A DNA stretch of 64,000 nt, from positions 736,001-800,000 of the forward strand of contig OZ241326.1 of NCBI GenBank assembly GCA_965199855.1, read 5' to 3'. The notes under the pieces were generated by a model. That model worked only from the letters and a program-made list of their open reading frames with translations. It was not told where the DNA came from and made no database searches. The translations under genes and the position numbers were made by a program. Source of the DNA: a bacterium. GTDB taxonomy: Bacteria; UBA8248. Below are positions 37,614 to 54,606 of this stretch, piece by piece. Within the stretch, counting starts at the first letter, position 1, and each line of letters opens with the position of its first letter.

Positions 37614-37814
37614 TCATCGCATGAACCGCCTCAAGTCCGCGCTCCCCGTCCCCTTCCCCCCGCCCGCGCGCTCGAGCGCCAGGCCGGCCTCGAGCGCCTC
37701 CTGGTTGAAGCGGAACTCCTCCCAGGAGCATCCGGCGAGAAGGTGCGGGGGGAGGCCGTAGGCTTTGGCCTGAAAGTGGATGAGCGCGAGGAGGTCGCGC
37801 CTCGCCCTACGGAA
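37614..37814 (-). other. Startless +1-frame ORF: putative frameshift extension of the tail assembly chaperone
   Basis: Reads FRRARRDLLALIHFQAKAYGLPPHLL... to TGA at 37614; entered via TTTC just before the chaperone stop. Confidence 0.55.
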
Positions 37815-38196: not shown

Positions 38197-38251
38197 GAAA
38201 AATCTCCCTTTGGCTTTCGATGAAGGAAGGCGCGCCCGGACGGCGGGCGGC

Positions 38252-39391: not shown

Positions 39392-39558
39392 TCCCCGCTC
39401 TCCTCCCGCTTCGGGTTTCCCTTGGGCGCGGGGGCGGCCTGCGCCCCCCGCGCCTCCTTCTCCGTCCTCCCCTCCCCGGGCGTCCCTCCGCCCGGGGCGG
39501 ACGCGGCGCGGCGCGCTTCCGCCGGCCGCGCCCGCGTCTCCTCCTTCGCCGGCTTCAA
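39388..39558 (-). CDS. Small low-complexity protein in the virion operon
   Basis: GAGGAGGGAGAGG RBS, TTG start, stop overlaps the tail tube ATG (ATGA); not in the ORF track. Confidence 0.4.
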   Translation of the reverse strand: MKPAKEETRARPAEARRAASAPGGGTPGEGRTEKEARGAQAAPAPKGNPKREESGE

Positions 39559-39570
39559 GCCTCTCCCTCC

Positions 39571-40104
39571 TCAGCCGCGCCGGATCCGCTCTATGGCCTC
39601 GATGCGGATTTCGGCGTAGTGGCAAAGCGCGCCCCCGAACGTCCTGAGCTCGATCAGGTCCACCTGCGGGGGCCGCAGACGCTCCAGGGAGCGGACGCGC
39701 GGCGCGCCGGACTCATCGAGGAGGCGAAGGGCCCGCTCGTCCCGGAAGCGGCCGCAAATCTCCTCGATCGCGTCCTGGAAGGCGAGCTCGCTGCCCGCCG
39801 CGTCCTCCGCGCCCATGATTCCGAACAGCAGGAAGGTGTGGGTTCTGCGGTTGAGTCCCCCCGGAGCGAAGCCGCCCCCCGCGCGCGAGCCGATGGAGGC
39901 GGCCTCCTCCCGCGCCCTTTCCCGCGTGAGCGTCCAGCCCCGGATCTGGACGACGCCGCCCCCCGCCTCCCAGCGGAAGAGGTCGAGATAGCCGCCCAGG
40001 TCGGCCGACCAGCGCTGATAGGCGTGCACCCGCCCCGCTCCCGCCGCCTTCGATACCTCCGCCAGAATGGCGTCGCCGATTTCCCTGTATCGAGATTCAG
40101 CCAC
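39571..40104 (-). CDS. Putative tail completion/terminator protein
   Basis: Position before tail tube; C-terminal FGGALCHYAEIRI resembles phage tail-completion proteins. Confidence 0.55.
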   Translation of the reverse strand: MAESRYREIGDAILAEVSKAAGAGRVHAYQRWSADLGGYLDLFRWEAGGGVVQIRGWTLTRERAREEAASIGSRAGGGFAPGGLNRRTHTFLLFGIMGAEDAAGSELAFQDAIEEICGRFRDERALRLLDESGAPRVRSLERLRPPQVDLIELRTFGGALCHYAEIRIEAIERIRRG

Positions 40105-40597
40105 CGACTCTCTCCGCGATCTCTCTCGCCAGCGCGTCGAGGCGCCGCTCGATGCGGCTCCCGTTCTCATCCAGCACGCGGGCGAACATGAAGCGGCCCC
40201 GGACGCCCCGCCCGGCTATGGCGCGCGCGGCGAGAAAGGCCGCGCTCTGCGGGCTCCCCCCGCGCGGCGCCAGCTTCCGCGCCGCCCACAGGTAGAGGGG
40301 CGACCCCTTCCTCCAGGGAGGAAGGGGGCTTCCCGGCGGGCGGCCGAACTCCACGGGGGCGGCGTAGGGGCAGCGCGAGGCGACCATGCCGGTCACCGCG
40401 CCCCGCCCGTCTCCCCGGATCCCGGTGAAAACGCTTCCCCGCAATTCGCCGGTCGCCCCCGAGGGCGTCCTCCTCCTCGCCTCGCGCCCGAGCGTCTCCA
40501 CGACTTCGGCCATCGCCTCGCGCGCGAGCCGGAGAACCTCCGCCTCGAGAGCGCCCGGCCGCGCGTTCAGGAGTCCCCCGAAATTCCCTCGCCGCAT
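40097..40597 (-). CDS. HK97 gp10-like neck/tail-completion protein
   Basis: TPSGATGELRGS, YAAPVEFG, ARAIAGRG motifs. Confidence 0.7.
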   Translation of the reverse strand: MRRGNFGGLLNARPGALEAEVLRLAREAMAEVVETLGREARRRTPSGATGELRGSVFTGIRGDGRGAVTGMVASRCPYAAPVEFGRPPGSPLPPWRKGSPLYLWAARKLAPRGGSPQSAAFLAARAIAGRGVRGRFMFARVLDENGSRIERRLDALAREIAERVGG

Positions 40598-40613
40598 TCG
40601 CCCTCTCCTCCGC

Positions 40614-41324
40614 CTAGCGCTCGTCGGGCGCGCCGCGCGTGACGTATTCGCCGCGCCGCCCGGAGAGGCTCGCGTCCCAGTCGAGCGAGGCGCCCGCGGC
40701 CGCCGCCGGCTCGCCCTCCTTCTGGCCGACGTGGTTTCGATACTTGCGCTCGAGCTCCCGCGCCAGGCGCGCGTATTCGCCGGACTTGCCCGGGTAGTCC
40801 GCCGAATCCGCCGCCAGGGTGGGGGGCGCGGACTGGGCGAAGCGGCGCGCCAGAAGGCCGCAGCCCTCGGCGGCGGCGAGCCAGGCCACGGCGGTCAGGT
40901 CGTTTCGGGGGACGCTCGCGCCCTCCTCGTCCGCCGCGTGTCCGATCGTGTAGAACAGGCGCGCCCGCTCGCCCCTGCGCGGGACGCTCCGCAGGAGCCT
41001 GAGCTTCGCGCCGGGGGCGCCCTTCGCGTAGATGCTCCAGTCGCGCCTCTGCAGGAAGGAGGGCGTCCGCCTTCCCTGGGGATATTCCACCGCCCGGACG
41101 ACCGAGAGGGAATCGTCCCAGTCTCCGGGCAGGGGGAAGTCGAACGAGGCGCCGTCGCCCTCGAAGTCGGCGAAGGCGGCGCGCGGCCTGTCCCGGCTGT
41201 AGCGCGCGAGGGCGGCGCTCACCAGGCCGGCGTAGTCCGCCTCCTCCAGCCCGAACTCCCGGGGCAGCGCGCCCGCCTTCAGGAGCGCCTTCGCCTCCTC
41301 GATGATCGTCTGCCTGCTGGCCAT
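40614..41324 (-). CDS. Putative head-tail adaptor protein
   Basis: ALARYSRDRP, VEYP, LAADSADY; lies between capsid and neck genes. Confidence 0.55.
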   Translation of the reverse strand: MASRQTIIEEAKALLKAGALPREFGLEEADYAGLVSAALARYSRDRPRAAFADFEGDGASFDFPLPGDWDDSLSVVRAVEYPQGRRTPSFLQRRDWSIYAKGAPGAKLRLLRSVPRRGERARLFYTIGHAADEEGASVPRNDLTAVAWLAAAEGCGLLARRFAQSAPPTLAADSADYPGKSGEYARLARELERKYRNHVGQKEGEPAAAAGASLDWDASLSGRRGEYVTRGAPDER

Positions 41325-41352
41325 CCGCGTCTCCTCTCCGCCCTCGGGCGGC

Positions 41353-41694
41353 TCAGGTCTTGAGCGCGAGCTTCGCCGAGAAGGTGAACGAGGCGCCCTC
41401 CCCTCCCACCGCCCAGGCGAGCCTGAGCCAGGGGCCGAAGTTCTCGAGCTTGAGGAGGGCCTTGCCCGCCTCGTCGATTCGCGCGGCCCTCGCGTGGACG
41501 AACGCCGCCTCATCGGCCGCCGGGCCGACCTCGACCGCCAGGTCGAGAGCGGGCGAGGCGCCCGAGGCCGCCGTCACGTCGATGAACAGCAGCGCCTCGG
41601 CGAAGCGGCTCACCTCGAACGCCGCGCTGCTCCCGCCCGCGGCGCGGGCCGCCGGGGGCGCGAGGACGATGGCGTGGACTCTCCTGTCGGGCAT
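41353..41694 (-). CDS. Small beta-rich virion protein (possible head decoration)
   Basis: Immediately after capsid; AGGAG RBS; IDVTAASGASPALD...WLRLAW pattern. Confidence 0.5.
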   Translation of the reverse strand: MPDRRVHAIVLAPPAARAAGGSSAAFEVSRFAEALLFIDVTAASGASPALDLAVEVGPAADEAAFVHARAARIDEAGKALLKLENFGPWLRLAWAVGGEGASFTFSAKLALKT

Positions 41695-41723: not shown

Positions 41724-43790
41724 CTAGCCGGCGGGCGCGCCGCGGTAGAAGCCGCGGTAGTCCAGGACGGCGCCGCCGTAGACGTGCCTGATCTTGTAGC
41801 GAATCTTGTCCGCGCTGAATCCGCTGCCGGCCGAGGGGTTGTCCTCGATGAACAGCTCGGGCTCGCGCATGTCGTCCATGAAGCCGATCTCGATGGTGTC
41901 CATCAGCCCCGGGTCGGCGACGAGGAACCAGTTGTTCGCGTCGGTGAACTCCGGCACCCACAGGGGCTCCAGCCCCAGGCGGTTGATGACGCTGGGCTGG
42001 GTGGAGTTCTCTCCCGATACGACCTTGACGGAGGACTGGGTGACCTCGAAGGCCTCCTCGAGCAGCTCCGTCGGGTGGAGCAGATACCTGGGCCGCGCCT
42101 GCGCCGCCGCCTCGACGCCCGCCTCCCCGTAGAAGGTCTGCTGGCCCATCGCCTTGACGCCGGCGATGACGTTGTCGTAGGCGAGCGCGTTCGCCGACGT
42201 GTTGTTGTGGCTGGCGTGGAACAGGGCGGTTCCGTCATAGATGGCGGCGTTGCCCGTGAGGAAGCCGAAGACGAAGGCGTTCAGGGTGCGCTGCGCCGCG
42301 CGCGCCAGACGCTGGGGAATCATGCGGATCGCGCCCATGTCGTCGTTCTGTATCATCTCCCAGGTGAGCTCCTCGATGCCGCCGCGCTTGGACACGGAGT
42401 AGGTCACCTCCTCGTCCGTCGGAGAGGCCAGCGCGGGATACGACGCCTGCTCGGCGACCGTCTGCAGGTCGCCGTAGCCGCCCACGCGCACCCGGCGGTT
42501 CGTCCGGAAGTCCTTGACGGGCGCGGAGGAGGAGACGATCTTCCTCCACTGGTGAAACCGCTCGTCGCGGAAGTCCCGCAGCATGGCGCGCCGGATGGAA
42601 TCCCCGAACGCCTCGCCCCAGGAGCTCGCCTGAAGGGAGGCGGAGAGGCGGCGCGCCCCGCCGCGCTCCTCGCCGGCGCGGGGATGGTGGAAGGTCTCGG
42701 CGAAGAACCGGCCCGGGGTGAGGCGCCGGCCCGTGAAGTCCTGAAACGCCTCGCTCATGAAGCGGTAGGGCCGCTCGCCCTCCAGGGGCGCGTCGGACGA
42801 GCGCCAGAGGCCGTCCAGCGCCGCCCTCTTGCGATCCGCCTCGTCCCGAACCGCCTCCGCCCGCGCGCCGAACCCGCGCAGCGCGCCGCTCGCGGTGAGC
42901 TTCTCGAGCGTGGCGGCCTCGAGGCGAATCGCCTCCTCCGCCTCCGCCTCCGAGCAGCCGCCGCCGAGCTGCGCGCGCAGCTTCTCCCGCACGGGCTCCG
43001 GCAGGGCGGAGGCGTCGAGCTTCCGCGCGAGCGTCCGCCGCGCTCCCTCCTCCCGCGGCGCCTCCTCCGGCGCGCCGCCGTCTTCCCCGAGGTCCAGCTC
43101 GAGGCCCGCCTCCTCGCAGGCCGCGAGCAGCTGCCGCGGCGTCCAGCGCCCGCCGGGCTCCCCGGCCGATTCAGACGCCGCGCTCTTCAGTTTCCTCGCC
43201 AGTTTCTCGAACATCTTCGCCTCCGATCTGGTGGAATGGTGGGCGGCGAGACCCAATATCCCGCCTCCGAGCCTGCCCTTGTGCACGATATCGACGGAAT
43301 GCACCGCCAGAATTTCCTCGAAATGCAGGACGAGCCTCTCCTCCTCCTCGCGGAACTCCGCCCGGGCGAGCACGTCGAAGGAGAACCCGAACGGCTCCTT
43401 CAGCCCCCGCGCCAGGGCGTCCTGGGCGAGCGCCTGAAACCACGCGGCCGAGCGCGCGACCGCGAACCTGCTCATCAGCCCCTCCTCGCCCATGCGGACG
43501 CCGCGGTGCCAGCCGACCAGATCCCGAATGTCGGGGCCGCCGGGGGGCGCGTGGTTCGCGAACGCCTGCGCGCCCTCGAACAGGGGCGCGGCGCGGCGCA
43601 GCACCTCCCGGGGCAGGAACCACTCCCCGTCCTTCGAGTAGCCCGGCCGCGCGATGAGCACCTCGAAATCCCAGACCTCGCCCCCAGGCCCGGACGCCTT
43701 CGAGAGGGGGCGGACGAGGCGCCCCCGCAGGCGGAGGGGACGCGCCTCCCCGCCCGCGCGCGCCCGCGTTCGATTCACCCGTCTTTTCAA
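41724..43790 (-). CDS. Fused prohead protease-scaffold-major capsid protein (Mu gpT-like capsid domain)
   Basis: N-terminal FANH...VGW...G.SFD...SIDIV protease-like region; C-terminal TWEMIQNDDMGAI..IP..LARAA, LFHASHNN, WFLVADP, IRYKIRHVYG...DYRG; GGAGG RBS + TTG. Confidence 0.8.
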   Translation of the reverse strand: MKRRVNRTRARAGGEARPLRLRGRLVRPLSKASGPGGEVWDFEVLIARPGYSKDGEWFLPREVLRRAAPLFEGAQAFANHAPPGGPDIRDLVGWHRGVRMGEEGLMSRFAVARSAAWFQALAQDALARGLKEPFGFSFDVLARAEFREEEERLVLHFEEILAVHSVDIVHKGRLGGGILGLAAHHSTRSEAKMFEKLARKLKSAASESAGEPGGRWTPRQLLAACEEAGLELDLGEDGGAPEEAPREEGARRTLARKLDASALPEPVREKLRAQLGGGCSEAEAEEAIRLEAATLEKLTASGALRGFGARAEAVRDEADRKRAALDGLWRSSDAPLEGERPYRFMSEAFQDFTGRRLTPGRFFAETFHHPRAGEERGGARRLSASLQASSWGEAFGDSIRRAMLRDFRDERFHQWRKIVSSSAPVKDFRTNRRVRVGGYGDLQTVAEQASYPALASPTDEEVTYSVSKRGGIEELTWEMIQNDDMGAIRMIPQRLARAAQRTLNAFVFGFLTGNAAIYDGTALFHASHNNTSANALAYDNVIAGVKAMGQQTFYGEAGVEAAAQARPRYLLHPTELLEEAFEVTQSSVKVVSGENSTQPSVINRLGLEPLWVPEFTDANNWFLVADPGLMDTIEIGFMDDMREPELFIEDNPSAGSGFSADKIRYKIRHVYGGAVLDYRGFYRGAPAG

Positions 43791-43878: not shown

Positions 43879-43933
43879 AATCTAGGACAGGCGGACCCGG
43901 AGGCGGGCGGCGCAAATGCGGGCAAATGCGCGC
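43879..43933 (-). promoter_or_regulatory. Putative activator-dependent promoter of the capsid/tail island
   Basis: GCGCGCATTTGCCCGCATTTGCGCC (43933-43909), 24 bp, then TAGATT (43884-43879). Confidence 0.65.
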
Positions 43934-44110
43934 CCGGGCGCTTTTTTTCGCCGAAAATCGCCGATTTCGCGCTTCGCCCGTTTGCGGGCGCGTCAAAAGT
44001 GCGGCAACATGGGGGAACGCAACGGACGGCGGCGCTTCGCCCGCCGCCGCGACTCGCAGCTTCTCCGGGGATTCGGGCCGCCCTCCGGCGGCCCGGACGA
44101 GGCTCATCTC

Positions 44111-45373
44111 ATGTGGGGCGCCGCGCATCCGGCCTTGAACTTCCTCCAGAGCCTCTCCTGGAGCCACCTGATCGACATCGGCATCATGTGGTTCCTGCTC
44201 TACCAGGTCTATATCCGCTTCCGGGGCACCCAGGCCATGCGCCTTCTCGCGCGCGTGTTCGGGGCGTGGCTCGTCTATCTCGCCTCCCGGGCCGCCGGGC
44301 TGCACCTCACCTCGTTTCTGCTCTGGGCCATCTGGATCGCCGCGCTCATCCTGTTTCTCATCAACTTCCACGGGGAGATTCAGAGGATATTCTTCCAGCT
44401 CAATCCGGTGCGCCGCGTCTCCACCCTGCTGCGCCGGGCGATGCGCATCCGCCTGCCGGAGGAGAGCGTGGCCGCCGTCGCCGAATCCGCCGTCGCGCTC
44501 GCTCGCGCGAGCCTGGGCGCCATCCTCGTCGTGGAGCGCCGCGACTCGACCGAGGCGCTGCTGAGCAGCCCGGGCGAGAGGATCGACGCGGACATCCGCC
44601 CGGCGCTTCTGGAGACCATCTTCCTCAAGGGCGCGCCCTGCCACGACGGCGCCGCCGTGATCCGCGGAAGCAAAATCGCGCGCGCGGGATGCCTCCTCCC
44701 CCTCTCGGAGAACCCGGCGCTGCCCCCCTCGTTCGGCGCGCGCCACAGGGCGGCGGCGGGGGTCGCCGAGCGCTGCGACGCCCTGGCCATCGTCGTCTCC
44801 GAGGAGCGCGGCGAGATCACCTGCCTGGAAGGCGGCCAGACGAAGCGGGCGGCGAGCGGGGAGGAGCTCGTCTCCTGGCTCTCCGCGCGCCTGCGCGCGG
44901 ACAGGGGAGCGGCGCAGGCGGGGCGCCGCATGTCGCCCGGGCGCGCCCTGGAGAACTGGAAGCCCAAGCTCGCCGCCCTGGCCGCCGTCCTCTTTCTCTG
45001 GACGCTGGGGGGGCAGGGGGGGCGGAGCCCGCAGACGCTCTTCCCGGGGCTGGAAAGCCGGGCGGAGGAGGCGTTTCGCGTCCCGCTCCGCTTCTACAAC
45101 CTCCCGGAGGGCGCCGCCCTTCCCTCCGACGCGCCGCAAGCCGTGCGGGTCCGCATCGGGGGCAGGCGCGACCTTCTGAACTTCCTCGACGCCTCGCGCC
45201 TGCGGGTGAGCGTGAACCTCGCCGCCATGGCGCCCGGGGCGCGCGAGCGCGCCCTCACCGGCCGCGACATCGACCTGCCGGGCGGCCTCGAATTTCTGGG
45301 GGCGGAGCCGGCCACGCTGCGCTTCACCCTGGGGAAGGCGGGCGCGAAGGAGGAGAAGCGGGAGGCGCCCTGA
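44111..45373 (+). CDS. Membrane diadenylate cyclase (CdaA-like) fused to a CdaR/YbbR-like domain
   Basis: Three TM helices, HDGA and RHRAA DAC motifs, VVSEERG, then ENWKPKL..TM and YbbR-like region; start uncertain. Confidence 0.85.
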   Translation: MWGAAHPALNFLQSLSWSHLIDIGIMWFLLYQVYIRFRGTQAMRLLARVFGAWLVYLASRAAGLHLTSFLLWAIWIAALILFLINFHGEIQRIFFQLNPVRRVSTLLRRAMRIRLPEESVAAVAESAVALARASLGAILVVERRDSTEALLSSPGERIDADIRPALLETIFLKGAPCHDGAAVIRGSKIARAGCLLPLSENPALPPSFGARHRAAAGVAERCDALAIVVSEERGEITCLEGGQTKRAASGEELVSWLSARLRADRGAAQAGRRMSPGRALENWKPKLAALAAVLFLWTLGGQGGRSPQTLFPGLESRAEEAFRVPLRFYNLPEGAALPSDAPQAVRVRIGGRRDLLNFLDASRLRVSVNLAAMAPGARERALTGRDIDLPGGLEFLGAEPATLRFTLGKAGAKEEKREAP

Positions 45374-45418
45374 ACATTTTTCGCTTGCGTTTCCCGCGCG
45401 AAGGGGCGATATTGACAG

Positions 45419-45715
45419 CGTGGGATGGAAAAAGCCTGGACGCCGCCCGGCGCGAGCCGGAAGGAGCCGACGTGGAAAGCGGCTCCGGCTGATGGGCTGG
45501 CGCGAACGAACGGGAGGGTGCGATGATCTTCATCATCAATCGCTTCACCCGCGCGGAGTTTCCGCCCTCCCCGGCCCAGCGCGTCGGCCGGGCGGGGAGG
45601 AGACGGCAAGGCCGACGCCCATCCAAGGCGACCAGTCGCCTTTGCGGGTGAGCCTTCTCACCCGAAGAAAAGCCGAAAAGAGAGCGGGGCCCCTCTCGGG
45701 TCCCGCTCTTCTTTT
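45419..45715 (+). ncRNA. Candidate structured non-coding RNA (family not recognised)
   Basis: Nested stems GGATGG/CCATCC, CCGCCCGG/CCGGGCGG, GGAGCCG/CGGCTCC, TGGGCTGG/CCGGCCCA, GGGAGGG/CCCTCCC, two 3' hairpins and a terminator. Confidence 0.35.
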
Positions 45716-45716
45716 C
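45676..45716. terminator. Bidirectional intrinsic terminator
   Basis: AAAAGAGAGCGGGGCCC-loop-GGGTCCCGCTCTTCTTTT. Confidence 0.7.
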
Positions 45717-45740
45717 TCGCCGCTCCGCGAGCCTGCGGCC

Positions 45741-45944
45741 TCAGCCCTTCGCCGCCAGCTTCCGCATTTCGATCTCCAGCTGCTGGAGCCTGTTCTTGAC
45801 CACGTTGAAGTCGTATTCAAGCCCCTCGGCGAGCAGAACGAGGCCCTCGCAGAGCCTGCGCTTCCCGGGCGCCTCCTCCTCGCTCACCGAATCGAGAAGT
45901 TCGGCGAAAGCCTCCCTCGCGTGATGAAAGCTCAAGGCGCGCAC
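45741..45944 (-). CDS. Small helical/coiled-coil hypothetical protein
   Basis: Host-like codon usage, amphipathic sequence, ends at the terminator. Confidence 0.55.
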   Translation of the reverse strand: MRALSFHHAREAFAELLDSVSEEEAPGKRRLCEGLVLLAEGLEYDFNVVKNRLQQLEIEMRKLAAKG

Positions 45945-46069
45945 CCCCTCTTTTTGAATGGACGCTGCGAAAGCGGAAAAATTCCCCGGCGGGGAGAGAT
46001 CCTACCCGCGTCTCTGCTAGAATCAAGCGCATCGACCAACGGGCCAGCGGCCCTTTCGAGGAGCCTCCC

Positions 46070-46564
46070 ATGCCGGAACGACCGAACGCGCCGCAGGTCA
46101 TCCTGCGCCTCATCCAGGGAACCCAGCTTCAGATGCTCACCACCACGGGCAGGCACTCCTACGTGCTGGACGAGCCGGAAAGCCGGGGCGGAACCGACCT
46201 CGCCGCCACGCCCTTCGAGTTCTTCGTCGCGGGCCACGCGGGCTGAGGCCTCTACACGCTGCTGGGAGCGGCGAAGAGCAGGGGCGTCCGCATCGACGAC
46301 GTGGAGGTTCACGCGGAGTTCAAGCGCAACGTCACGCCGAAATTCCACGCGGACTATCACGGCGACCCCGAGCGGAGGAAGCTGGCCATCGGCGTCATCC
46401 GAACGAGCTACTACGTTCGCGGCGACGTCTCCGAGGAGCAGCGGGCGGCGCTCCTGGAGGAACTCGCCAACTGCCCCATCCACAACACGCTGACGACGCC
46501 GCCCAGGCTCGAGGAGCGCATCGTCGTTCTGGCCGAAGGCGAGGCGCCGCCCCGGGAGGCTTGA
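46070..46564 (+). CDS. OsmC/Ohr-family selenoprotein (in-frame UGA = Sec59)
   Basis: GAGGAG RBS + ATG 46070; DEPESRGGTDLAATPFEFFVAGHAG-TGA(46244-46246) at the conserved first Cys position; same frame continues to CPIHNTL; SECIS-like hairpin follows. Confidence 0.85.
46250..46278 (+). promoter_or_regulatory. Bacterial SECIS-like hairpin
   Basis: CTCT..CGCTGCT-GGG-AGCGGCG.AGAG; G-containing apical loop 17 nt after UGA. Confidence 0.65.
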
Positions 46565-46706
46565 GGCCCGGCGGGGAAAGGGGAGCCGCTCCCGAAGAAT
46601 TTCCCCGCGCGGACGCGGGGAGGCTCCGCGGAAAAGGACTGGACGCCCGGGCGCGAACGCGCCGTCGCCGGACGGGAACGCTCCCCGCTTGACGAGGAAG
46701 CGAGAG

Positions 46707-47606
46707 ATGAGAATCGGATTCATCGGATTGGGAAAGATGGGCGCCGGCATGGCGGCCAGCCTCCAGAGGGCGGGCCGCGCCCTCGTCGTTCACGACGTCG
46801 TCCGGGAGGCGGCGGAGGCGCACCTCGCGCGCGGGGCGCGGTGGGCGGATTCTCCCGCGGAGGTCGCCCGCGCGTGCGAAATCGTCCTCACCTCGCTTCC
46901 GGGGCCCCGGGAGGTGGAGAGCGTCGCCACGGGCTCCGGGGGCGTCCTCGAGGGCGCGGGCGCGGAAAGCGTCCTCATCGACCTCAGCACGGGCGCCCCC
47001 GCCGTCATCCGGCGGATTCACGAAAAATTCGCCGGGCGCGGGGCGCGCGTGCTCGACGCCCCCGTGAGCGGCTCCACCATCGGCGCGAGGACGGGCCGCC
47101 TCGCCATCATGGCGGGGGGCGAGCGGGAGGTCTTCGAGCGCTGCCGGCCCGTTCTCGAGGACATCGGGGATCGCCTCATCTACGCCGGCGAAATCGGCAG
47201 CGGCGCCGTCTGCAAGCTCGCCCACAACTGCCTGGGCTACGGCATTCAGGCGATCGCGGCGGAATGCTACACCCTGGGCGTCAAGGCGGGCGCGGCGCCC
47301 GAGGCCGTGGCCGAGGCGATTCTGAACGGCGCCGTGGGCCGGGGGGTGCACTTCAGCTTCCTCTTCCCCGAAACCTTCCTCAAGGGGAAATTCGACGAGC
47401 CGCACTTTCCGCTGAAGGGCGCGGTGAAGGACGTGGGGCTCGCCCTCGATATGGCCCGGGAGCACCGGGTGCCCATGACGATGGGCGGCATCGCCTACCG
47501 GGAGCTCGTCGCGGGCCTGAACCGGGGATGGGGAGAGGACGACGCGCGCCGCGCCATGACCCTCCAGGAGGAGCGCGCCGGCGTCCGGGTGCGGATTTCC
47601 GGATGA
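46707..47606 (+). CDS. NAD(P)-dependent oxidoreductase, 3-hydroxyisobutyrate dehydrogenase family
   Basis: IGFIGLGKMG, LDAPVSG, GSGAVCKLAHN. Confidence 0.9.
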   Translation: MRIGFIGLGKMGAGMAASLQRAGRALVVHDVVREAAEAHLARGARWADSPAEVARACEIVLTSLPGPREVESVATGSGGVLEGAGAESVLIDLSTGAPAVIRRIHEKFAGRGARVLDAPVSGSTIGARTGRLAIMAGGEREVFERCRPVLEDIGDRLIYAGEIGSGAVCKLAHNCLGYGIQAIAAECYTLGVKAGAAPEAVAEAILNGAVGRGVHFSFLFPETFLKGKFDEPHFPLKGAVKDVGLALDMAREHRVPMTMGGIAYRELVAGLNRGWGEDDARRAMTLQEERAGVRVRISG

Positions 47607-47693
47607 GGGGGCCGCGCGCCCCGGACGATGACGCGCGCCTTCGCCCCTGAGGCGCCCCCTCTCCCGCCGGAGCGCGAAGCGAGGAGCATCGGC

Positions 47694-48689
47694 ATGAAGC
47701 ACGGCATCGCCCTGCTGCCGCCCGAGCCGGCGGCCTACGCCCGCTGGTGCCGCCTCGCCGAGGAGGCGGGCTTCGCCGTCCTCTGGGTGCCCGACTCCCA
47801 GTCGCTCTACCGGGAGCTCTACGTCTCCTGCGCCGTCTGCGCCGCGAACACGAAGCGCGCCCTGCTGGGGCCCAACGTCACGAACCCGCTCACGCGGCAT
47901 CCGGCGGCGGCCGCGAGCGCCATCGCCACGGTGGACGAGCTCTCCGGCGGACGCGCGCTCTTCGGAATCGGCACGGGCGACAGCGCGGCGCTGAACCTGG
48001 GGCTGCGCCCCGGCCGGGTGGATGACCTGCGGGACTACGTCCTCGCCCTGCGCGGGACGCTCGAGGAGGGCGCCGCGCGCTGGCGGGGAAAGCCCTGCTC
48101 CCTGACCTGGCATCGAAAGCGCATCCCCATCTACCTCTCCGCCGAGGGGCCGCGAACGCTCATGCTCGCGGGCGAGATCGCCGACGGCGTCACCATCGGC
48201 TCCGGCCTCCGTCCCGAGGACGGCGCGCGCTCCGCGGGCCGCAAGGCGGACGACCTCGACGTCTGGTGGCTGGTGAAGGCGAACGTGGGCGAGGACGGGG
48301 CGCGGGCGCGCGAGGAGATTCGCGCCGCCCTCGCCGCCAGCGCGCATCACGCCTTCCGCTTCACGCTCGAGGGCCGGGGCGTTCCGAAGGAGCTGCGCTC
48401 CGCCGTCCGGACCCTGAAGAAGGAATACGCGTTCCACGAGCACGAGATGACGGACAAGCGCGCGAACGCGGAGCTCGTGGACAGGCTGGGCCTGCGCGAA
48501 TATCTGCTGAACCGCTTCGCCGTCGCCGGGACGCCCGCCGAGTGCCGAGAGCGCATCGCGGAGCTCGGGGCGATCGGCGTCGGGAACCTGAGAATCTCCG
48601 CCCACGTCCCGGACAAGCCCGCCTTCATCGAGAGATGGGGCCGCGAGGTGATGGGCCGGGACGCGCAGCCCGAAAGGACGCTTCCATGA
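47694..48689 (+). CDS. LLM-class (Mer-like, probably F420-dependent) oxidoreductase, paralog 1
   Basis: PDSQ, VTNPLTRHP, GIGTGDSA, AEGPRTL..AGEIADG. Confidence 0.85.
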   Translation: MKHGIALLPPEPAAYARWCRLAEEAGFAVLWVPDSQSLYRELYVSCAVCAANTKRALLGPNVTNPLTRHPAAAASAIATVDELSGGRALFGIGTGDSAALNLGLRPGRVDDLRDYVLALRGTLEEGAARWRGKPCSLTWHRKRIPIYLSAEGPRTLMLAGEIADGVTIGSGLRPEDGARSAGRKADDLDVWWLVKANVGEDGARAREEIRAALAASAHHAFRFTLEGRGVPKELRSAVRTLKKEYAFHEHEMTDKRANAELVDRLGLREYLLNRFAVAGTPAECRERIAELGAIGVGNLRISAHVPDKPAFIERWGREVMGRDAQPERTLP

Positions 48690-49687
48690 GACACGGCATT
48701 TCGTTCCGCCCGCCCGATACCGCCTCGTTCGCCCGCTGGTGCCGCCGCGCGGAGGAGGGCGGCTTCGACGCGGTGTTCATCCCCGACTCGCAGTCCCTCT
48801 ACCGGGAGGTCTATGTGTCGAGCGCGATATGCGCGATGGAGACGAAGAGCGTCCTCTTCGGCCCGTGCGTCACGAACCCGCTCACGAGGCACCCGGCCGT
48901 GGCGGCGAGCGCCATCGCCACCATCAGCGAGCTCTCCGGCGGGCGCGCCTTCTGGGGCATCGCCACGGGCGACAGCGCGGTGCTGAACCTGGGGCTCAGG
49001 CCCGCGAAGCTCGCCGACATGCGCGAATACGTCCTCGCCGTCCGGGGGATGCTCGAGGAGGGAAGCGCGCGCTACAAGGGCAAGGACTGCCGGCTGAGCT
49101 GGCATCGCGCCCGCGTTCCCATCCACGTCGCCGCCGAGGGCCCCAGGACCCTGCGCCTGGCGGGCGAGGTGGCCGACGGCGTCATCATCGGGACCGGCCT
49201 CTTGCCCGAGGTGGTCGCCGACGCGCTCCAGTTCATCGACGAGGGGGCGCGCGAATCCGGCAGGCGCGCGGAGGATCTCGACCTCTGGTGGCTCGCCGAC
49301 GCCCACGTGGACGCGGACGGGGAGCGCGCCCGCGAGGACGTCCGCACCGCCCTCGCCGCCAGCGCGCACCATTCGTTCTCCTTCACGCTGGAGGGCAAGC
49401 GCGTCCCGAAAGAGCTGGAAGCGGGCGTCCGCGCCCTCCGGGAGGGCTACCGCTTCTCCGAGCACGGCCTGATGGACAAGTCGAACAACGCCGCCCTGGT
49501 GGACGAATACGGCCTGCGGGAGTATCTGGCGGCGCGCTTCGCCATCGTCGGCACCCCCGCCGAATGCCGGAAAAGGCTCGCGGAGCTTGCGGCGCTCGGC
49601 GTCCGGGGCCTGCGCATCAACAACAACCTGCCCGACCGCGTCGAGTTCATGGACGCCTGGAGCAGGGAGGTGCGGGGGATGGGGTGA
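48686..49687 (+). CDS. LLM-class (Mer-like, probably F420-dependent) oxidoreductase, paralog 2
   Basis: Same motifs; ATGA overlap with paralog 1. Confidence 0.88.
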   Translation: MRHGISFRPPDTASFARWCRRAEEGGFDAVFIPDSQSLYREVYVSSAICAMETKSVLFGPCVTNPLTRHPAVAASAIATISELSGGRAFWGIATGDSAVLNLGLRPAKLADMREYVLAVRGMLEEGSARYKGKDCRLSWHRARVPIHVAAEGPRTLRLAGEVADGVIIGTGLLPEVVADALQFIDEGARESGRRAEDLDLWWLADAHVDADGERAREDVRTALAASAHHSFSFTLEGKRVPKELEAGVRALREGYRFSEHGLMDKSNNAALVDEYGLREYLAARFAIVGTPAECRKRLAELAALGVRGLRINNNLPDRVEFMDAWSREVRGMG

Positions 49688-49743
49688 GAGGGGGGAGCGA
49701 AGCAGTTTTCCTTCGGCCGGACGCCCTGAACAACCCGGCCGCT

Positions 49744-50277
49744 CTAACGGGAAGACGCGGCTTCCAGTTCCTCGACCCGCTCGCCGTCCTCGCTTTCCTG
49801 TCGGCGGCGTCGCCCGGCGGCTTCAATCGCCCGGGCGATGACGGAGAACGACTTCGGGGGGCCATACGAGCCTCTCACGTCCAGTTGCCGCAGTTTGTCC
49901 GTTTCCCAATCCGCGAGACGCCTGAACACCCTGGAGACGACCTGCTGCCGGGATTTGACGCGGGAGACGTCCTCCCCTTCCTCCTCCAGGAAGGCGCGGA
50001 CGCTGTTGACGTTCGGCATGAACCTCTTTTCCTCGTATTTCCTCGCAAGCGCCATGAGAGCGTTCTTTTTTCCCTCATCCGGCAACGCAAGGGATTCCAC
50101 GATGGCCACGGCGTTCGGCCTGGGTCGCGGCTTTCTCGCCCGCTTGACGGAAGCATTTATTGAGACGGGCGCGTTTGCCCGGGCGGGGCCGCAATCCTCC
50201 AGCGCTCTGCGAACCGCCTCGTATCCGCAATCCTCGACAAGGACCGACAGCAGGCTTCTCAAAGCGGTTTTTTTCAC
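49744..50277 (-). CDS. Hypothetical protein coupled to the ParA-like gene
   Basis: GTGA overlap with the ParA stop; lower GC. Confidence 0.6.
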   Translation of the reverse strand: MKKTALRSLLSVLVEDCGYEAVRRALEDCGPARANAPVSINASVKRARKPRPRPNAVAIVESLALPDEGKKNALMALARKYEEKRFMPNVNSVRAFLEEEGEDVSRVKSRQQVVSRVFRRLADWETDKLRQLDVRGSYGPPKSFSVIARAIEAAGRRRRQESEDGERVEELEAASSR

Positions 50278-51140
50278 GGCGAACCCTCCTGCGACTTAAA
50301 ACCCATCATCTTCAAAAACTCGTCGGCGATTTCTCGGAACTCACCAGGAGCATTGCCAGTATGGGTAGGGTACGCTTCTTTCATAAGTTTGGGATACCCA
50401 TCCGAATGCCACATCTGATTTCGCATGATACGCCATTTATTGTTCTTCGCTTCAGCCCGAATATCAGCCAAGGCGGCCTTATGATGCGGCCCTGGCCGCG
50501 AGCCCGATCTTCTCGTATTGTTAATCAGGACGCCGCACACGTCTATGACATGAGCGAGATTGTCTAACCTGAATTTTTCCAGGGATTCTTTCAACAAAGG
50601 AAAGCCGATGGTGGAGAAGAACTCCGTTCGCACAGGAACAAGAACGTAGCGCGAGGCGTGATAGGCCGTTCGGGTGAATCTCGATTCGGTCGGGGCGCAA
50701 TCAATCAACACGAGATCCTTATCGCCCATTTCCTCGGCGATGTATCTCGCCAGAACTCGCTCATCAACAGGGATAGAAGAAATCAGATTGTCCGAGAAAT
50801 CGAACCTCGACGGAATGAGGCTCAGGTTTCCTCCGTGTCCGACCTTTCTGATGACTTGACCCAAAGGCGCGGGTGCCGACTGCGTAGGGGATGGCGGCCG
50901 ATAGCCGTTGAAAAGCTCCACGATGGAGGGTTCCTTGTTGCCCATGAAATCCTTATAGTCGTCTTCATCCATGAGCGCCTGACTCAAATTCGCCTGCGGA
51001 TCCAAATCCACGGCCAGCACCTTCAAACCCTTCCTCGCGGCGTGTCTCGCCAACAACGCCACGACGGTCGTCTTTCCGACGCCGCCCTTCAGGTTGATCA
51101 CCGACGCCACGACAGGCTTTTTCCCGGCTTCCCCGGACAC
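50274..51140 (-). CDS. ParA/Soj-family ATPase
   Basis: NLKGGVGKTT, VDLDPQAN, LIDCAP; lower GC than flanks. Confidence 0.88.
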   Translation of the reverse strand: MSGEAGKKPVVASVINLKGGVGKTTVVALLARHAARKGLKVLAVDLDPQANLSQALMDEDDYKDFMGNKEPSIVELFNGYRPPSPTQSAPAPLGQVIRKVGHGGNLSLIPSRFDFSDNLISSIPVDERVLARYIAEEMGDKDLVLIDCAPTESRFTRTAYHASRYVLVPVRTEFFSTIGFPLLKESLEKFRLDNLAHVIDVCGVLINNTRRSGSRPGPHHKAALADIRAEAKNNKWRIMRNQMWHSDGYPKLMKEAYPTHTGNAPGEFREIADEFLKMMGFKSQEGSP

Positions 51141-51454
51141 GCTTTTCTCCTCGGTTATCCGATGCCGCGAATTTTCATGAGCGCATCGTCAACGCGCTCT
51201 CCCCTATTATGCGCCCTCGCGCGCGATTTTGAAAATTCGAGAAACCCCCAGAACCGTTCCCCTCCGCCGCGGCGTGGCGTAGAGCGGACGGAAGCTTGCG
51301 GGATGGGGGCGCGTCCCTGGTCACGCCGCCGCGCCGAGGATGAAGAAGCGCCGCCGAACGTATCTCGCCCCCTGATCGTTCTTCTCACAAGGCTGACGAT
51401 ACCCTGATCCCGAACGGAAACGGCATCAAGCCGCCGCAAAAATTCACGCCCCCC

Positions 51455-52801
51455 TCACCCCTCGAGGCTCATGCCGAACTGGCCGGCGATGTGGCGGACG
51501 AGCCTGCCGGCGGCCGCGTCGCTCATCCAGCCGCGCGCGGTCGCCGCGGCGAGCGCCTCGCTCACGCGCGCGAGCGCCTGGGAGAGCTTCTCGGCGTCGC
51601 GGACGGATATCTCCGGCAGGACGGGCGAGACGCCCGCGCGCAGCGCCTCCTCCGGCAGCGCGCCCGCGCGATGGGCCTCCTCGAGCTGCCTGTCGGCCAT
51701 GGCCTGGAGGACGTGGCGCACGGCGCGCTGGCGCCGCGTCATCTTCTTCAGGGTGGGCTGATCCATCGATTCGGCGGAGGCGCGGTTCACGTCCTCGCCC
51801 TGGGCGAACCAGTGGGAGGGAATCCCCGCGCCGCCCAGCAGAAGCCCCCGCACCAGCTTGGCGACCCCCTGAAGGCCGCTCTCGCCCCCCTTCAGGTCGG
51901 GCGAGACGGCCTGCCAGTGCTCCTTCTCGTTGTGGACGCGCACGCTCGAGGGGCGCGGGGCGACGCCGTTCTCGGCGAGCCAGTCGGCGATCTGCTCCGG
52001 CCCCGCCCCCTTCAGGGTGACGTCGTAGATGAAGCTGTTCTGAAGGCGGGCGCGCTCGACGGCGTCGAAGACGAAGCGCTCGTAGGCGTCTATCCAGTCG
52101 ATGGCGGCGAGGAGGTCGGAGGAGCCGCGGGCGGCGTCGCTCGCCTTGTTGATTTGGAAGAGGAACGCCTCGCCGTCCGTGAAGCGCGCGCGCTCCCTTT
52201 GGGCGGCCGCGCTCAGGTAGCCGCGCGGGTCGCCGCCCAGCGCCGTCCGCAGCCGCCTGCCCCTCCGCCCCGCTCCGCCCGGCCCCTCGGCGCGCAGGAC
52301 GACCCCCAGCGCCAGGGCGCAGTTGTCCGGGTCCATCACCACCTCCTCGATCAGGCGGGGGCTGACGTAGCCCAGGCGCACGCGCCCCTCGAAGCGCGAG
52401 ACGGCGAGCGGCAGGAGGAGCTCGCCGAAGACGCCGAGCTCCGAGACGAGCCGCTCGAAGCGGATGTCCATCTGGTTCACGGGGTCGCCCCAGAACGCCC
52501 GGACGGCGCGCAGGGCGCGCTCATCCTCCGAGTGCCAGCTCACCCCCTCGCCCACGACGTGGTCGGTGACGATCTCGATGAGGCGCTGGCCCATCAGGTT
52601 CGTGAGCCAGAGCTCGTGCGCGAGGAACTGCATCCGCGCGTGGTCGCGGCGCGGCAGCGCGCCCGTCTCCGCTCCCAGGGGCCGCCAGACGCCCTCGTCG
52701 GGGTCTATCGCCGCGCTCATCCGCCCGGCGCCGCGCGAGGCGGCCCCCGCCGCGCGCCTCCTCCTCCGCGCGGGGCTTTCCTTCGCCTTCGCGTTCTCCA
52801 T
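51455..52801 (-). CDS. Phage portal protein
   Basis: Follows terminase; TN..G.RLIEI.TDHVVGEG, FW.DPVN, ELGVFGE, RGSSDL, VRVHNEKE.W, G.DVNRASA. Confidence 0.75.
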   Translation of the reverse strand: MENAKAKESPARRRRRAAGAASRGAGRMSAAIDPDEGVWRPLGAETGALPRRDHARMQFLAHELWLTNLMGQRLIEIVTDHVVGEGVSWHSEDERALRAVRAFWGDPVNQMDIRFERLVSELGVFGELLLPLAVSRFEGRVRLGYVSPRLIEEVVMDPDNCALALGVVLRAEGPGGAGRRGRRLRTALGGDPRGYLSAAAQRERARFTDGEAFLFQINKASDAARGSSDLLAAIDWIDAYERFVFDAVERARLQNSFIYDVTLKGAGPEQIADWLAENGVAPRPSSVRVHNEKEHWQAVSPDLKGGESGLQGVAKLVRGLLLGGAGIPSHWFAQGEDVNRASAESMDQPTLKKMTRRQRAVRHVLQAMADRQLEEAHRAGALPEEALRAGVSPVLPEISVRDAEKLSQALARVSEALAAATARGWMSDAAAGRLVRHIAGQFGMSLEG

Positions 52802-52803
52802 TC

Positions 52804-53445
52804 TCACTCCCTCCTGAGCATTCGCCGGCCCGGCGCCCGCGGAGGCGCGGTTCCCCCGGCGGCGGGGGCCAGCATCCCCTCGCTCCGCGCCAGGGACTCG
52901 GCCAGCCGCGCGTAGGCGCAGGCGAAGCCGAAGTGGTTCTCGTTGCGCTCGTAGGACAGGACGGTCTCGCCCGAGGCGCGCAGGCGCGGCCTTTTCCGCA
53001 GGTTCATCAGGTGGCGATCCACGCGGGCGAGGAGCGCCTCCTCCTCCGCGCTCCCGGGCGTGGGCATCAGGACGCGCTCCGGCCCCTGGTGAAGCTCCTC
53101 CACCAGATGATCCAGCAAATCCTCGCGGCTCACGCGCGCGTGGCGGCGCGGCGCGCCCAGAAACGCGACCTCCCTGATCCGCGCCTCCCCCTCGGCGTGC
53201 CGCCAGATGAAGCCGCCCTCCGGATGCAGGTCATAGACCGCCCGCGCGGCCTGGGTGTGGGGGCCGCCGTCGATGACGAACGCCTCGACCCCCAGACCCT
53301 CGAACACGGCGCGGCACCGGGGGAGGAGCCGCTCGATGGGCGGCTCCTCGAAGTATATCCACCGGACGCGCCGCCCCGCCTCGCGCACCGCGAGAGCGCA
53401 GACGTCGCCCGTGTCGATTCCGCAGAAGCGGTGGGGCGCGCTCAC
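52804..53445 (-). CDS. Terminase large subunit, stand-alone C-terminal nuclease domain
   Basis: CGIDTG, FVIDGGP, ENHFGFACAY RNase H-like motifs; own GGAGG RBS and GTG overlapping the upstream TGA. Confidence 0.65.
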   Translation of the reverse strand: MSAPHRFCGIDTGDVCALAVREAGRRVRWIYFEEPPIERLLPRCRAVFEGLGVEAFVIDGGPHTQAARAVYDLHPEGGFIWRHAEGEARIREVAFLGAPRRHARVSREDLLDHLVEELHQGPERVLMPTPGSAEEEALLARVDRHLMNLRKRPRLRASGETVLSYERNENHFGFACAYARLAESLARSEGMLAPAAGGTAPPRAPGRRMLRRE

Positions 53446-54500
53446 GCGGGCGCCTCCGCCGGCGGATAGGGCGCGGCGGCGCGCAGGCTTTCCAGCAGCT
53501 CCCGCGTGACGGGTTGCGCGTCTCCCGCGTCGGGCATGGCGAGCGACGAGCAGCGGAAGCGCGCCTTCTCGCTCGGAAGCCGCGCGGCGGCCCACTTCGC
53601 CGCGATCCGGCGCAGGCGGACGGCGCCGACCGCGAGCTGGGAGAGGCGGTAGCTCCTGTGCCGGGGCAGGGCGCGCGCCGCCTCCCATCGCCCCGCTCCC
53701 CGCGCGAGCGGCGCGCCGCACGCCGGGCAGACGAGCGCCGAGGCGCGCAGGACGCGGGGCCAGTGCTCCTCCAGGGCGCTCTCCGCGCGGCAGGCGGGGC
53801 AGCGCGCGAGCCAGCGCCTCTGATCCCCCGCCTCGTACATGGCGTGAATGCCCGCCCCGGGCGTTCTCCCCACCGCGAGGTTCAGCGTCAGGGCGAGCGG
53901 CGAGGCGTCGAGGCGGTCGTTCGACCACGCGAGGTTCTCCGGCGGGAGGTCGTCCACCTCGTCCCGAATCAGCACGTCGAGCGGCAGCGAGATGGCGCTG
54001 CCCACGTCCCGGAGCCCCAGGATGTAGAGGAACCGCGACCCCCCGGGGCCGGGAAACTCCTTGAGTCCCCTCGGCGAGGCGCCCCGGTAGGCGCCGTGGC
54101 GCATGAGGCGGGCGATTCGCCCGCGCCGCAGCACCGGGCGCACGCGCGTCTGATCGAAGCGGTTGGCGAAGTCCTGGTCGGGCAGAAAATAGCCCACGTT
54201 CAGGCGGCGGACGATGACGCCGTAGAGCGCCGCGCCTATCGCCAGGGTGGTGAGGCCCACCTGCGCCCCCTTGAGGATGGTGATGGTCTCATCGGGCGCG
54301 CCCCTCTCGAAGACGGCGTCGAGGGCGGCCGCGGGCTCCAGCAGCGCCTCGCGCCCCTCGAAGGTGAAGGGGCCGCCGTCGGCGCGAATCTCGCTCGCGA
54401 GAAACCGCGCCAGCCCGCGCGCCGCGCCGGCGAAGCGCGCGGGGGCGCCCGCCGCCAGGGCGAGGCTCGGGGCGCGAATGATTTTTCGGGACTTTCGCAA
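53442..54500 (-). CDS. Terminase large subunit, ATPase domain (lambda gpA-like)
   Basis: ILKGAQVGLTT Walker A, VLIRDEVD Walker B, GDQRRW, two CPAC Zn motifs, G.W.A. Confidence 0.78.
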   Translation of the reverse strand: MRKSRKIIRAPSLALAAGAPARFAGAARGLARFLASEIRADGGPFTFEGREALLEPAAALDAVFERGAPDETITILKGAQVGLTTLAIGAALYGVIVRRLNVGYFLPDQDFANRFDQTRVRPVLRRGRIARLMRHGAYRGASPRGLKEFPGPGGSRFLYILGLRDVGSAISLPLDVLIRDEVDDLPPENLAWSNDRLDASPLALTLNLAVGRTPGAGIHAMYEAGDQRRWLARCPACRAESALEEHWPRVLRASALVCPACGAPLARGAGRWEAARALPRHRSYRLSQLAVGAVRLRRIAAKWAAARLPSEKARFRCSSLAMPDAGDAQPVTRELLESLRAAAPYPPAEAPA

Positions 54501-54551
54501 TCCTGAAACTCCTCCCCGCCGGAGACGCGCGCCGCGTCCCCGCAGGGGAGG

Positions 54552-54606
54552 AATATAGGGCGCGGACGCCGCCGTCCGCGAGGCGCAAATGCGGGCAAAT
54601 GCGCGC
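54552..54606 (-). promoter_or_regulatory. Putative activator-dependent promoter of the terminase/portal island
   Basis: Identical 25-mer GCGCGCATTTGCCCGCATTTGCGCC (54606-54582), 24 bp, then TATATT (54557-54552). Confidence 0.65.

Follow-up and report, generated by a model that had tools for sequence, protein, structure and literature searches.

Gene transfer agents (GTAs), whose particles package host DNA in amounts too small for their own gene set and transfer it, are known from a handful of lineages, and their regulation has been worked out mainly in the Alphaproteobacteria. In phage Mu, the late promoters (Plys, PI, PP and Pmom, activated by C) and the middle promoter (activated by Mor) carry, operon by operon, an activator site upstream of a -10 element and have no -35 element. 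In RcGTA, the GTA of Rhodobacter capsulatus, the particle genes are spread over several loci (core cluster, head spikes, tail fibres and lysis), all of which are co-induced (PMC6363796, PMC9638019); the dedicated activator GafA binds the promoter of the structural cluster, as described in a paper whose main text does not use the word 'consensus' (PMC6363796). Here we analyse a tandem-repeat box in a 64,000-nt stretch of DNA, hereafter the window, which comprises bases 736001-800000 of the complete 3.04-Mb chromosome (67% GC) of an uncultured, sponge-associated bacterium. We consider it probable, at roughly 0.7, that this box is the upstream half of a dedicated, factor-dependent class of late-type promoters uniting a vertically inherited, dispersed GTA-like gene set.

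In the window the box takes the form of a 25-mer, GCGCGCATTTGCCCGCATTTGCGCC, with exact copies at two minus-strand sites, each followed by a -10-like hexamer:

43909..43933, minus strand: Box 1, two tandem CGCATTTGC units with a 10-bp period, ahead of the capsid operon (exact match)
43879..43884, minus strand: -10-like hexamer TAGATT, 24 nt past the 25-mer, which is 26 nt past its 20-mer core (sequence reading)
54582..54606, minus strand: Box 2, the same 25-mer, ahead of the terminase-portal operon (exact match)
54552..54557, minus strand: -10-like hexamer TATATT, 24 nt past the 25-mer (sequence reading)

The chance expectation for such matches is 0.00 (100 dinucleotide-preserving shuffles); a motif search of the window additionally returned the 25-mer with three mismatches at 13840-13864 (+). 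The 24 nt between box and hexamer are unlike in the copies ahead of the capsid and of the large terminase (TerL). A strong ribosome-binding site (RBS) and a TTG start codon follow about 90 nt (capsid) and about 50 nt (TerL) further downstream, the capsid gene starting with TTG at 43790 behind the RBS AAAGGAGG and the TerL gene with TTG at 54500. The hexamer of Box 1 has no -35 partner, the best agreement with TTGACA being 2/6. The original prediction had described precisely this arrangement, that is, an identical 25-mer at two minus-strand sites, a fixed 24-nt gap of differing sequence before TAGATT or TATATT, and capsid and TerL as the first genes downstream; all of it holds on re-reading the sequence, and Pfam and PHROG matches identify the two genes as expected. 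Two further boxes inside the window, beyond this pair, are found at 9957-9986 and 13843-13862 (+), both within repeat elements.

Across the genome, the 20-mer core CGCATTTGCCCGCATTTGCG occurs in 33 exact copies and in 96 with up to three mismatches (overlapping registers counted), and these matches merge into 76 sites. The proximal unit alone is matched 532 times at up to one mismatch; a -10-like hexamer lies 25 nt downstream of 22 of these matches and 26 nt downstream of 42. Other spacings give one to five matches each, except 35/36 and 45/46 nt, which stand out because the distal (second and third) units lie one and two helical turns further away. For the 532 matches the spacing of box to -10 is far from chance, and the hexamer class TAnnnT is rare in the genome (4574 on one strand). 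After removal of double counts, 61 distinct box-N25/26-(-10) units remain, of which five stand directly ahead of phage-like operons and about 55 lie in non-coding repeat elements, here termed box-M elements. In the five operons (capsid, TerL, endolysin plus holin, tail and tape measure) the unit precedes a strong-RBS start codon by 45-90 nt. The operons occupy four chromosomal loci separated by host genes, the tail and tape-measure units lying 1.8 Mb off. A genome scan had been suggested as the check on the original prediction, and it thus located box-N26-(-10) ahead of three phage-like operons beyond the first two (endolysin plus holin, tail, tape measure). Abundance of the motif with no enrichment ahead of phage-like genes had been named as the result that would speak against the idea: the motif is indeed abundant, with about 55 of 61 units not phage-associated, but its enrichment before phage genes is extreme.

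The anatomy of the unit sets it apart from the housekeeping promoters of the same genome. At spacers of 16-18 nt, the best agreement with TTGACA is at most 3/6 in 64/64 units, while 469/4574 TAnnnT hexamers (10%) in the background reach 4/6 or better. The 16S promoter, TTGACA-N17-GATAGT, is preceded by a T-rich stretch and has no box, and 18/49 tRNA/tmRNA genes carry TTGACn-N16-18 plus a -10 within 150 nt, none of them with a box. If transcription starts 7 nt after the hexamer, the box extends from about -58 to -39, with ATTT cores near -43 and -53. Class-I/II activator sites, like those of Mu C/Mor and P2 Ogr, occupy this region.

For comparison we used 23 genomes of the genus (this one and 22 others) and 18 genomes from outside it. 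The box (at most one mismatch) is present in 19/22 other genus genomes and in 0/18 outside the genus; a reversed control pattern gave 0 matches. TerL, the first tail gene and the tape measure were each found in 21/23 genus genomes and the endolysin in 19/23, the marker proteins of the relatives being 61-84% identical to those of this genome. Box, 26-nt gap and -10 stand ahead of TerL at 21/21 loci, with CTATATTCCTCCCC kept in all 21, ahead of the tail operon at 22/22 loci and, as at least one unit, ahead of the lysis locus at 19/19. For the capsid the count is 22/27, TAGATT being kept in the relatives; the capsid loci without the unit are on short or more distant contigs, and two distant loci (69% identity) carry a GAATTTC-type variant of the box at the same spacing. 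At 17/19 lysis loci an extra open reading frame (ORF) comes between the first unit and the endolysin, which are about 475 nt apart, and a second unit, present at 13 lysis loci, precedes the ORF p110 and the small-terminase-like gene (TerS) where the locus reaches that far. Box, spacing and -10 are kept from species to species although the DNA on the 5' side of the box shows no relationship, a pattern that marks selection on the box itself. The three neighbouring loci also keep their order and their separations of 10-23 kb in the relatives, the conserved layout as a whole having three loci 8-23 kb apart and a fourth 1.8 Mb off. Public sequencing runs containing the sequence are DNA runs from sponge and marine metagenomes.

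Two genomes of the genus, G008 and G009 (99% and 95% complete), are without the box, all four markers and both families of repeat elements. In both, cofE-(cupin)-DAC are adjacent at the position where this genome carries the capsid operon (island C). Judged by the housekeeping sigma protein, the two are about as close to this genome as are the box-bearing G007 and G019, and therefore do not look like outliers. The empty site of G008 (L167, intergenic between cofE and DAC) contains one CCGCATTTGCGC unit, oriented as the missing capsid promoter would be, which may be a remnant of a lost island or may be there by chance. The original prediction had taken the paired boxes for the mark of a selected regulon rather than of a randomly fragmented prophage, and this is borne out by the further operons and by the approximately 20 related species that keep the unit. 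It had also assigned each island an activator-dependent late promoter of its own: a late-type promoter copy is indeed present at each, while activator dependence is read from the anatomy and no activator gene was found. Overall, the putative regulon spans five operons, four loci and about 20 species, which supports the predicted common control and widens it to the repeat elements.

The genes assigned to the four loci, with their promoter units outside the window, are the following:

41724..43790, minus strand: prohead protease-major capsid fusion, 688 aa (PF25209, E 1.2e-46; phrog_4523 'major head and protease protein', E 1.6e-49)
37807..41513, minus strand: remainder of island C, about six ORFs by codon-position GC frame plot; the island ends near 37650
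40097-40597, minus strand: HK97 gp10-like neck/tail-completion protein (PF04883, phrog_5)
38252-39625, minus strand: tail-tube-like protein (PF18906, phrog_290)
53442..54500, minus strand: large terminase, ATPase part, 352 aa (PF05876, E 4e-16; phrog_675, E 1.7e-49, profile positions 25-343)
52804..53445, minus strand: large terminase, nuclease part, in another frame (phrog_675 profile positions 360-547)
51455..52807, minus strand: portal protein (phrog_10963, E 1.2e-43)
genome 801833-801852 (window-equivalent 65833-65852), minus strand: lysis-locus unit, N26-TAGAAT, 1.8 kb past the window end, preceding endolysin and holin
63927..64000, minus strand: p110 (110-aa ORF), 3' part only, next to the TerS-like gene on its upstream side and running off the window (83-93% identical in 12/19 lysis loci)
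63358..63930, minus strand: small-terminase-like protein, Mu gp27-like, last gene of the lysis/TerS locus (phrog_426 'terminase small subunit', E 5e-6; PF11985, E 1.3e-4, below cut-off)
genome 2581769, plus strand: tail-operon unit with TATAGT, followed by about eight ORFs, one matching a PHROG without known function and the rest no family
genome 2588896, plus strand: tape-measure unit with TACACT, ahead of a tape-measure-like gene (phrog_1535, E 2e-12)

Capsid proteins at 28 loci in other genomes are 57-82% identical to that of this genome (74-82% for the closest 20). The endolysin matches PF00959 (E 2e-12) and the holin PF11351, GTA_holin_3TM ('Holin of 3TMs, for gene-transfer release'), with an E of 3.4e-11, above the cut-off. 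TerL is encoded in two frames: the ATPase ORF stops with TGA at 53444-53442, and the nuclease part can begin at GTG 53445 (GTGA overlap), followed by the motif FCGIDTGD. The end of the ATPase ORF is kept in relatives, where all 352 query residues align and the open frames measure 357-365 aa in 14/20 genomes, which marks the split or programmed shift as conserved rather than as a recent break. No box can be recognised ahead of p110-TerS in this genome, and the relatives carry a box promoter there.

Together, the loci provide TerS-like protein, TerL in two parts, portal, protease-capsid, neck, tube-like and tape-measure-like proteins, about eight tail ORFs, endolysin and holin. As expected of a GTA, head, packaging, tail and lysis genes of phage origin are all represented, the tail being only putatively complete, since several of its ORFs have no family. 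Vertical inheritance, likewise expected of a GTA, is apparent from the occurrence of each marker in 19-21/23 genus genomes with order and distances kept. No integration, replication or repressor genes stand beside any locus, replication genes having been sought only there; the genome contains no phage integrase and no rve transposase, and its only two tyrosine recombinases lie about 0.8 and 1.07 Mb from the window loci. The capsid, queried as a single protein, has no relative in IMG/VR and only distant ones among GenBank phages (at most 43% identity over the capsid domain), and therefore no ancestral phage can be used for tracing the activator. This is the profile of a putative domesticated GTA-like element and not of a recent prophage.

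The box-M elements share the promoter unit with the phage operons. Each consists of the box (two to four units), the -10, 100-300 variable bases, a repeat cluster M and an AT-rich stretch, M being made of three to four GACAAATTC/GAATTTGTC units at periods of 10 or 21-22 nt. This genome has 27-33 copies of a T family, in which M is oriented as the promoter, about 18-21 copies of a G family, in which it is opposite, and some divergent singletons. Two T-type elements fall in the window:

9930..10200, plus strand: T-type element with three box units at 9957-9986, TATATT at 10012-10017, then GAATTTGTC-type units
13806..14066, plus strand: T-type element with box at 13843-13862, TATATT at 13888-13893 and GAATTTGTC-type units near 14015-14035

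Of 26 M clusters, 24 have a box promoter no more than 600 nt away, and random 450-nt stretches rarely contain two or more units (0.7% of 5000). Full T elements are almost confined to this genome. The G-type architecture is genus-wide; there the M unit has drifted to GATAAATTC and the box has stayed constant, which suggests two different binders of, or constraints on, the two motifs. Under a null model that ignores gene density, the 55 non-phage units are evenly spaced (coefficient of variation of the gaps 0.655 versus 0.974 at random; 4/5000 simulations as low), with a largest gap of 147 kb versus a simulated median of 243 kb. A functional tie to the phage-derived system is plausible on three grounds: the elements have the late-type promoter in common with it, the genomes without phage genes are the very ones without elements, and the elements are evenly spread. 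A tentative and rather doubtful idea is that they are cis-acting stations at which, once the activator fires, packaging or local over-replication of host DNA would begin, or else minimal satellites that hitch a ride; they could also be decoys. If they are such stations, the whole chromosome would be sampled into particles. In either case virion genes and dozens of places on the chromosome would belong to one regulon, an arrangement that, to our knowledge, has been described for no GTA.

Other roles for the repeat elements found no support. RNAalifold on 27 T-element transcripts returned no credible structure (-2.7 kcal/mol, no two-sided compensatory changes), and the T element was dropped as a structured small RNA. 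A small strong-RBS ORF that heads G-type elements was rejected as coding, since its length and frame are not conserved between the copies read. At gathering thresholds, a tRNA-Sec was the sole Rfam match in the window, with none at the repeat elements; no tRNA genes lie downstream of boxes. Two CAGAAT-type box-M elements face each other 5.7 kb apart, at genome positions 2300268 (+) and 2306031 (-) (L019), and ordinary-looking genes, for EamA, a multihaem cytochrome, an HNH endonuclease, EPSP synthase and Tag glycosylase, lie between them. Beside many box-M elements, repetitive extragenic palindrome (REP)-like, GC-rich hairpin repeats such as GGGGCGTTCGGGAACGCCCC and GGGACAACCCCCTGTGGTTGTCCC are observed; these also occur at 14100-14340 of the window and in many intergenic regions.

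We propose a promoter composed of two helically phased CGCATTT(G/C)C units and, 25-26 nt downstream, a sigma-70-type -10 (TAnAnT or nAGAAT), with no -35. Such a promoter would be silent with RNA polymerase alone. A sequence-specific factor would bind the tandem repeat and recruit polymerase, probably head-to-tail on one face of the helix, the arrangement of a dimer that the 10-bp direct repeat suggests. With a box ahead of each operon, one signal would switch on all loci together; the gene set would most likely make GTA-like particles, and whatever binds the box would also act at the approximately 55 box-M elements. The anatomy of the unit, its census in the genome, its conservation across species and the joint absence in two genomes are direct observations; transcription start, activator dependence, particle production and DNA transfer are what we infer from sequence.

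Some of the anatomical evidence could be accommodated by other promoter models. UP elements, the sites of the C-terminal domain of the polymerase alpha subunit, are A/T-rich tracts found at about -40 to -60, where they strengthen a promoter that is complete in other respects, typically that of rRNA genes. The position of the box fits such an element, but its conserved G/C flanks, the lack of a -35 and its absence from the 16S and tRNA promoters point to a specific factor. Direct reading of the box by an alternative sigma factor, as a distant '-35' that needs no separate activator, would explain why TTGACA is lacking and could draw on the four sigma-70-family genes of this genome. We judge it very unlikely: the -10 belongs to the housekeeping TAnAnT type, direct repeats in tandem with a 10-bp period are typical sites of dimeric DNA-binding proteins, and two of the three non-RpoD sigmas (208 and 305 aa) occur in the box-free G008 and G009 as well. 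Moreover, spacers in the sigma-70 family measure 16-19 nt, and the 26-nt gap between box and -10 is far beyond this range. A sigma-54 site was rejected by inspection, as the TTGC pair is 10 nt apart and not 11, and the conserved -10 found 26 nt downstream would go unexplained. The in-phase tandem repeats would also suit cooperative repressors, and the many copies in AT-richer repeat elements could be nucleation sites of a nucleoid-type silencer, the box then being an operator and the promoters weak, constitutive and de-repressed. This, too, is distinctly unlikely, because the entire box (about -58 to -39) is upstream of the core promoter, a position from which repressors seldom act on their own, because a promoter with no -35 needs help to fire, and because a strict distance from box to -10 is a demand of polymerase contact and not of a silencer.

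The abundance of the unit outside the phage loci might indicate that the box is part of a mobile or repetitive element, of the REP type or the miniature inverted-repeat transposable element (MITE) type, which landed near phage genes by chance and has no role there. About 55/61 units do lie in repeat families (T, 27; G, about 18-21) with random orientation relative to genes, and the near-restriction of the full T element to this genome agrees with mobility. The phage operons, however, share the box and the -10 alone: their sites are singletons at a 100-nt BLAST threshold, with 0-1 M units downstream. The unit is, furthermore, found at orthologous positions and with base-exact spacing in about 20 species whose flanks have diverged, and the genome is without an rve-type transposase. 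A chance landing is thus highly improbable. A decaying, fragmented prophage with ordinary late promoters, never domesticated, deserves more weight and is nonetheless unlikely. Phage late operons often each have an activator site, Mu having four C-dependent late promoters, and signs of decay could be seen in the p110-TerS box lost from this genome and in a TerL read in two frames. Yet the same four-locus layout with open reading frames, at 62-84% protein identity, recurs in 19-21/23 genus genomes, and the TerL split is itself conserved. The absence of any integrase, replication or repressor gene beside the loci and, with the capsid as the single query, of a close phage relative in IMG/VR or among GenBank phages likewise argues against simple decay.

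As to the factor that would bind the box, the genome has four sigma-70-family genes, one of them for a 326-aa protein. The two that were compared, the 208-aa and 305-aa sigmas, were ruled out as box-specific factors by their presence in the box-free G008 and G009. No match to PF02316 (HTH_Tnp_Mu_1) was found. By its position immediately upstream of TerS, p110 is a candidate activator and no more than that. It is 83-93% identical across species and the best-conserved gene of the lysis locus, and it matches no Pfam or PHROG family. Its AlphaFold model (mean predicted local distance difference test score 55) is too poor for fold comparison, and its Atlas neighbours with winged-helix families score below 0.9, under the trust level, and serve as a lead only.

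Several observations weigh against the proposed class of factor-dependent promoters for a GTA-like gene set. About 55 of the 61 units are not ahead of phage genes or of any gene, so the box is not simply a 'virion-gene promoter'. The orientation of the box-M elements to neighbouring genes is random (T, 15 convergent versus 12 co-directional; G, 10 versus 11), as judged with crude gene calls (codon-position GC) covering 76% of the genome. The start site, the activity of the promoters and their need for an activator are deduced from anatomy. In the complete genome, the Mor/C family (PF08765) has no match at E <=1 and Phage_CII (PF05269) no homologue (best E 0.54), and no activator gene has been identified. 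The best positional candidate, p110, has no recognisable box ahead of it in this genome and is missing from the closest relative, G001, which keeps 26 boxes. G008 and G009 may be sister species, and their co-absence of box and phage genes may be a single event. Finally, a GTA and a conserved defective prophage are inseparable by sequence alone.

The genes around all four loci are host-type (cofD/C/E, diadenylate cyclase, OsmC, dehydrogenases, YajQ, Amt, fatty-acid synthesis, CinA). Island C is bordered by host cofD/cofC/cofE and cupin genes on the plus strand below 37560. Divergent from the capsid promoter lies a diadenylate cyclase gene (DAC domain; 44009-45373, plus strand), an arrangement kept in relatives, and in at least eight genomes a YajQ/DUF520 gene (54667-55269, minus strand, in this one) is the immediate upstream neighbour of the TerL box. 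With a HAMP-adenylate/guanylate cyclase nearby (58283-60508, minus strand), nucleotide second-messenger genes surround the islands. The TerL leader (54505-54545, minus strand) forms a predicted hairpin right after the predicted start and before the RBS, in which 2/8 predicted pairs have two-sided changes that keep the pair (19 sequences; orthologous leaders L051-L071); the capsid and tail-operon leaders have similar GC-rich hairpins by eye. The portal gene is closely followed, at 49744-51140 on the minus strand, by a ParA-like ATPase (PF13614; phrog_164) and a 177-aa ORF without a family, in DNA of lower GC (61%). Between the TerL and lysis loci are a HepT/MNT-type toxin-antitoxin pair (57525-58179, minus strand) and a fused DNA methylase-Mrr-like restriction protein (61369-62829, minus strand). 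A 176-aa hydrophobic ORF on the opposite strand lies between holin and p110 (window-equivalent 64258-64830; L072:501-1031, plus strand).

These data add a strong GTA-like candidate in an uncultured, sponge-associated lineage (metagenome-assembled genomes (MAGs) labelled Nitrospinota/Tectomicrobia). In the paper listings searched, 'gene transfer agent' is joined with Tectomicrobia in no case and with Nitrospinota in a single unrelated paper. The crisp cis-element lets the whole predicted regulon be read from sequence, including the parts 1.8 Mb off, and a 20-bp tandem repeat with fixed geometry can serve as bait for finding the activator. Through the evenly spaced, box-headed non-coding units, the making of particles may be connected with sites on the host chromosome. 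In practice, the box is a marker for dispersed domesticated phages of the kind that prophage and GTA finders based on gene order would miss.

Among described systems, the RinA/ArpU/LtrC-type proteins of Gram-positive phages are small activators encoded immediately upstream of terS, which switch on packaging, morphogenesis and lysis from one promoter that drives one long operon. The position of p110 directly upstream of a terS-like gene resembles theirs; unlike them, p110 has no detectable family and is absent from G001, and several dispersed operons are involved. CII promoters are activator-dependent, their repeats straddle the -35, and they serve lysogeny and not virion genes. As in the CII promoters of lambda and P22, the box contains a TTGC-N6-TTGC direct repeat, the motif given for CII (PMC2629481). 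Here, however, 26-27 nt separate the end of the repeat from the -10, so that the repeat sits about 15 nt upstream of the position it has in CII sites, and the genome encodes no Phage_CII homologue. The Bartonella GTA, BaGTA, integrates loci of separate origin by a shared transcriptional device, antitermination, and couples a single run-off replication origin to packaging (bioRxiv 10.1101/2024.11.20.624540). A shared device over separate loci and candidate cis elements are features of the present system as well, but the device is a promoter box and the candidate elements number about 55.

The likeness to RcGTA consists in dispersed phage-derived particle loci, whose co-induction is predicted here from the shared box, and in a holin of the 'gene-transfer release' Pfam family PF11351. 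The differences are the phylum (the MAG records of the relatives are labelled Nitrospinota, Nitrospinaceae or Candidatus Tectomicrobia), the capsid family (PF25209, fused to a protease), and the sharply defined tandem-repeat box at every locus, which is also common to about 55 non-coding elements. Like the Mu C/Mor promoters, the units combine an upstream site (here the box, at about -58 to -39 if transcription begins 7 nt past the hexamer) with a -10 and lack a -35, and the TerS-like protein matches Mu gp27, weakly. Mu C and Mor sites are dyads, whereas the box is a direct repeat, and neither a Mor/C family protein nor a transposase is encoded. Of the analogy originally drawn with Mu C/Mor or GafA control, the promoter anatomy and the dispersed loci fit, while the part that would call for a Mor-family activator does not (PF08765, no match). 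The closest functional analogue is RcGTA with GafA, and the closest promoter anatomy is that of the Mu C-dependent late promoters; the system described here is a member of neither.

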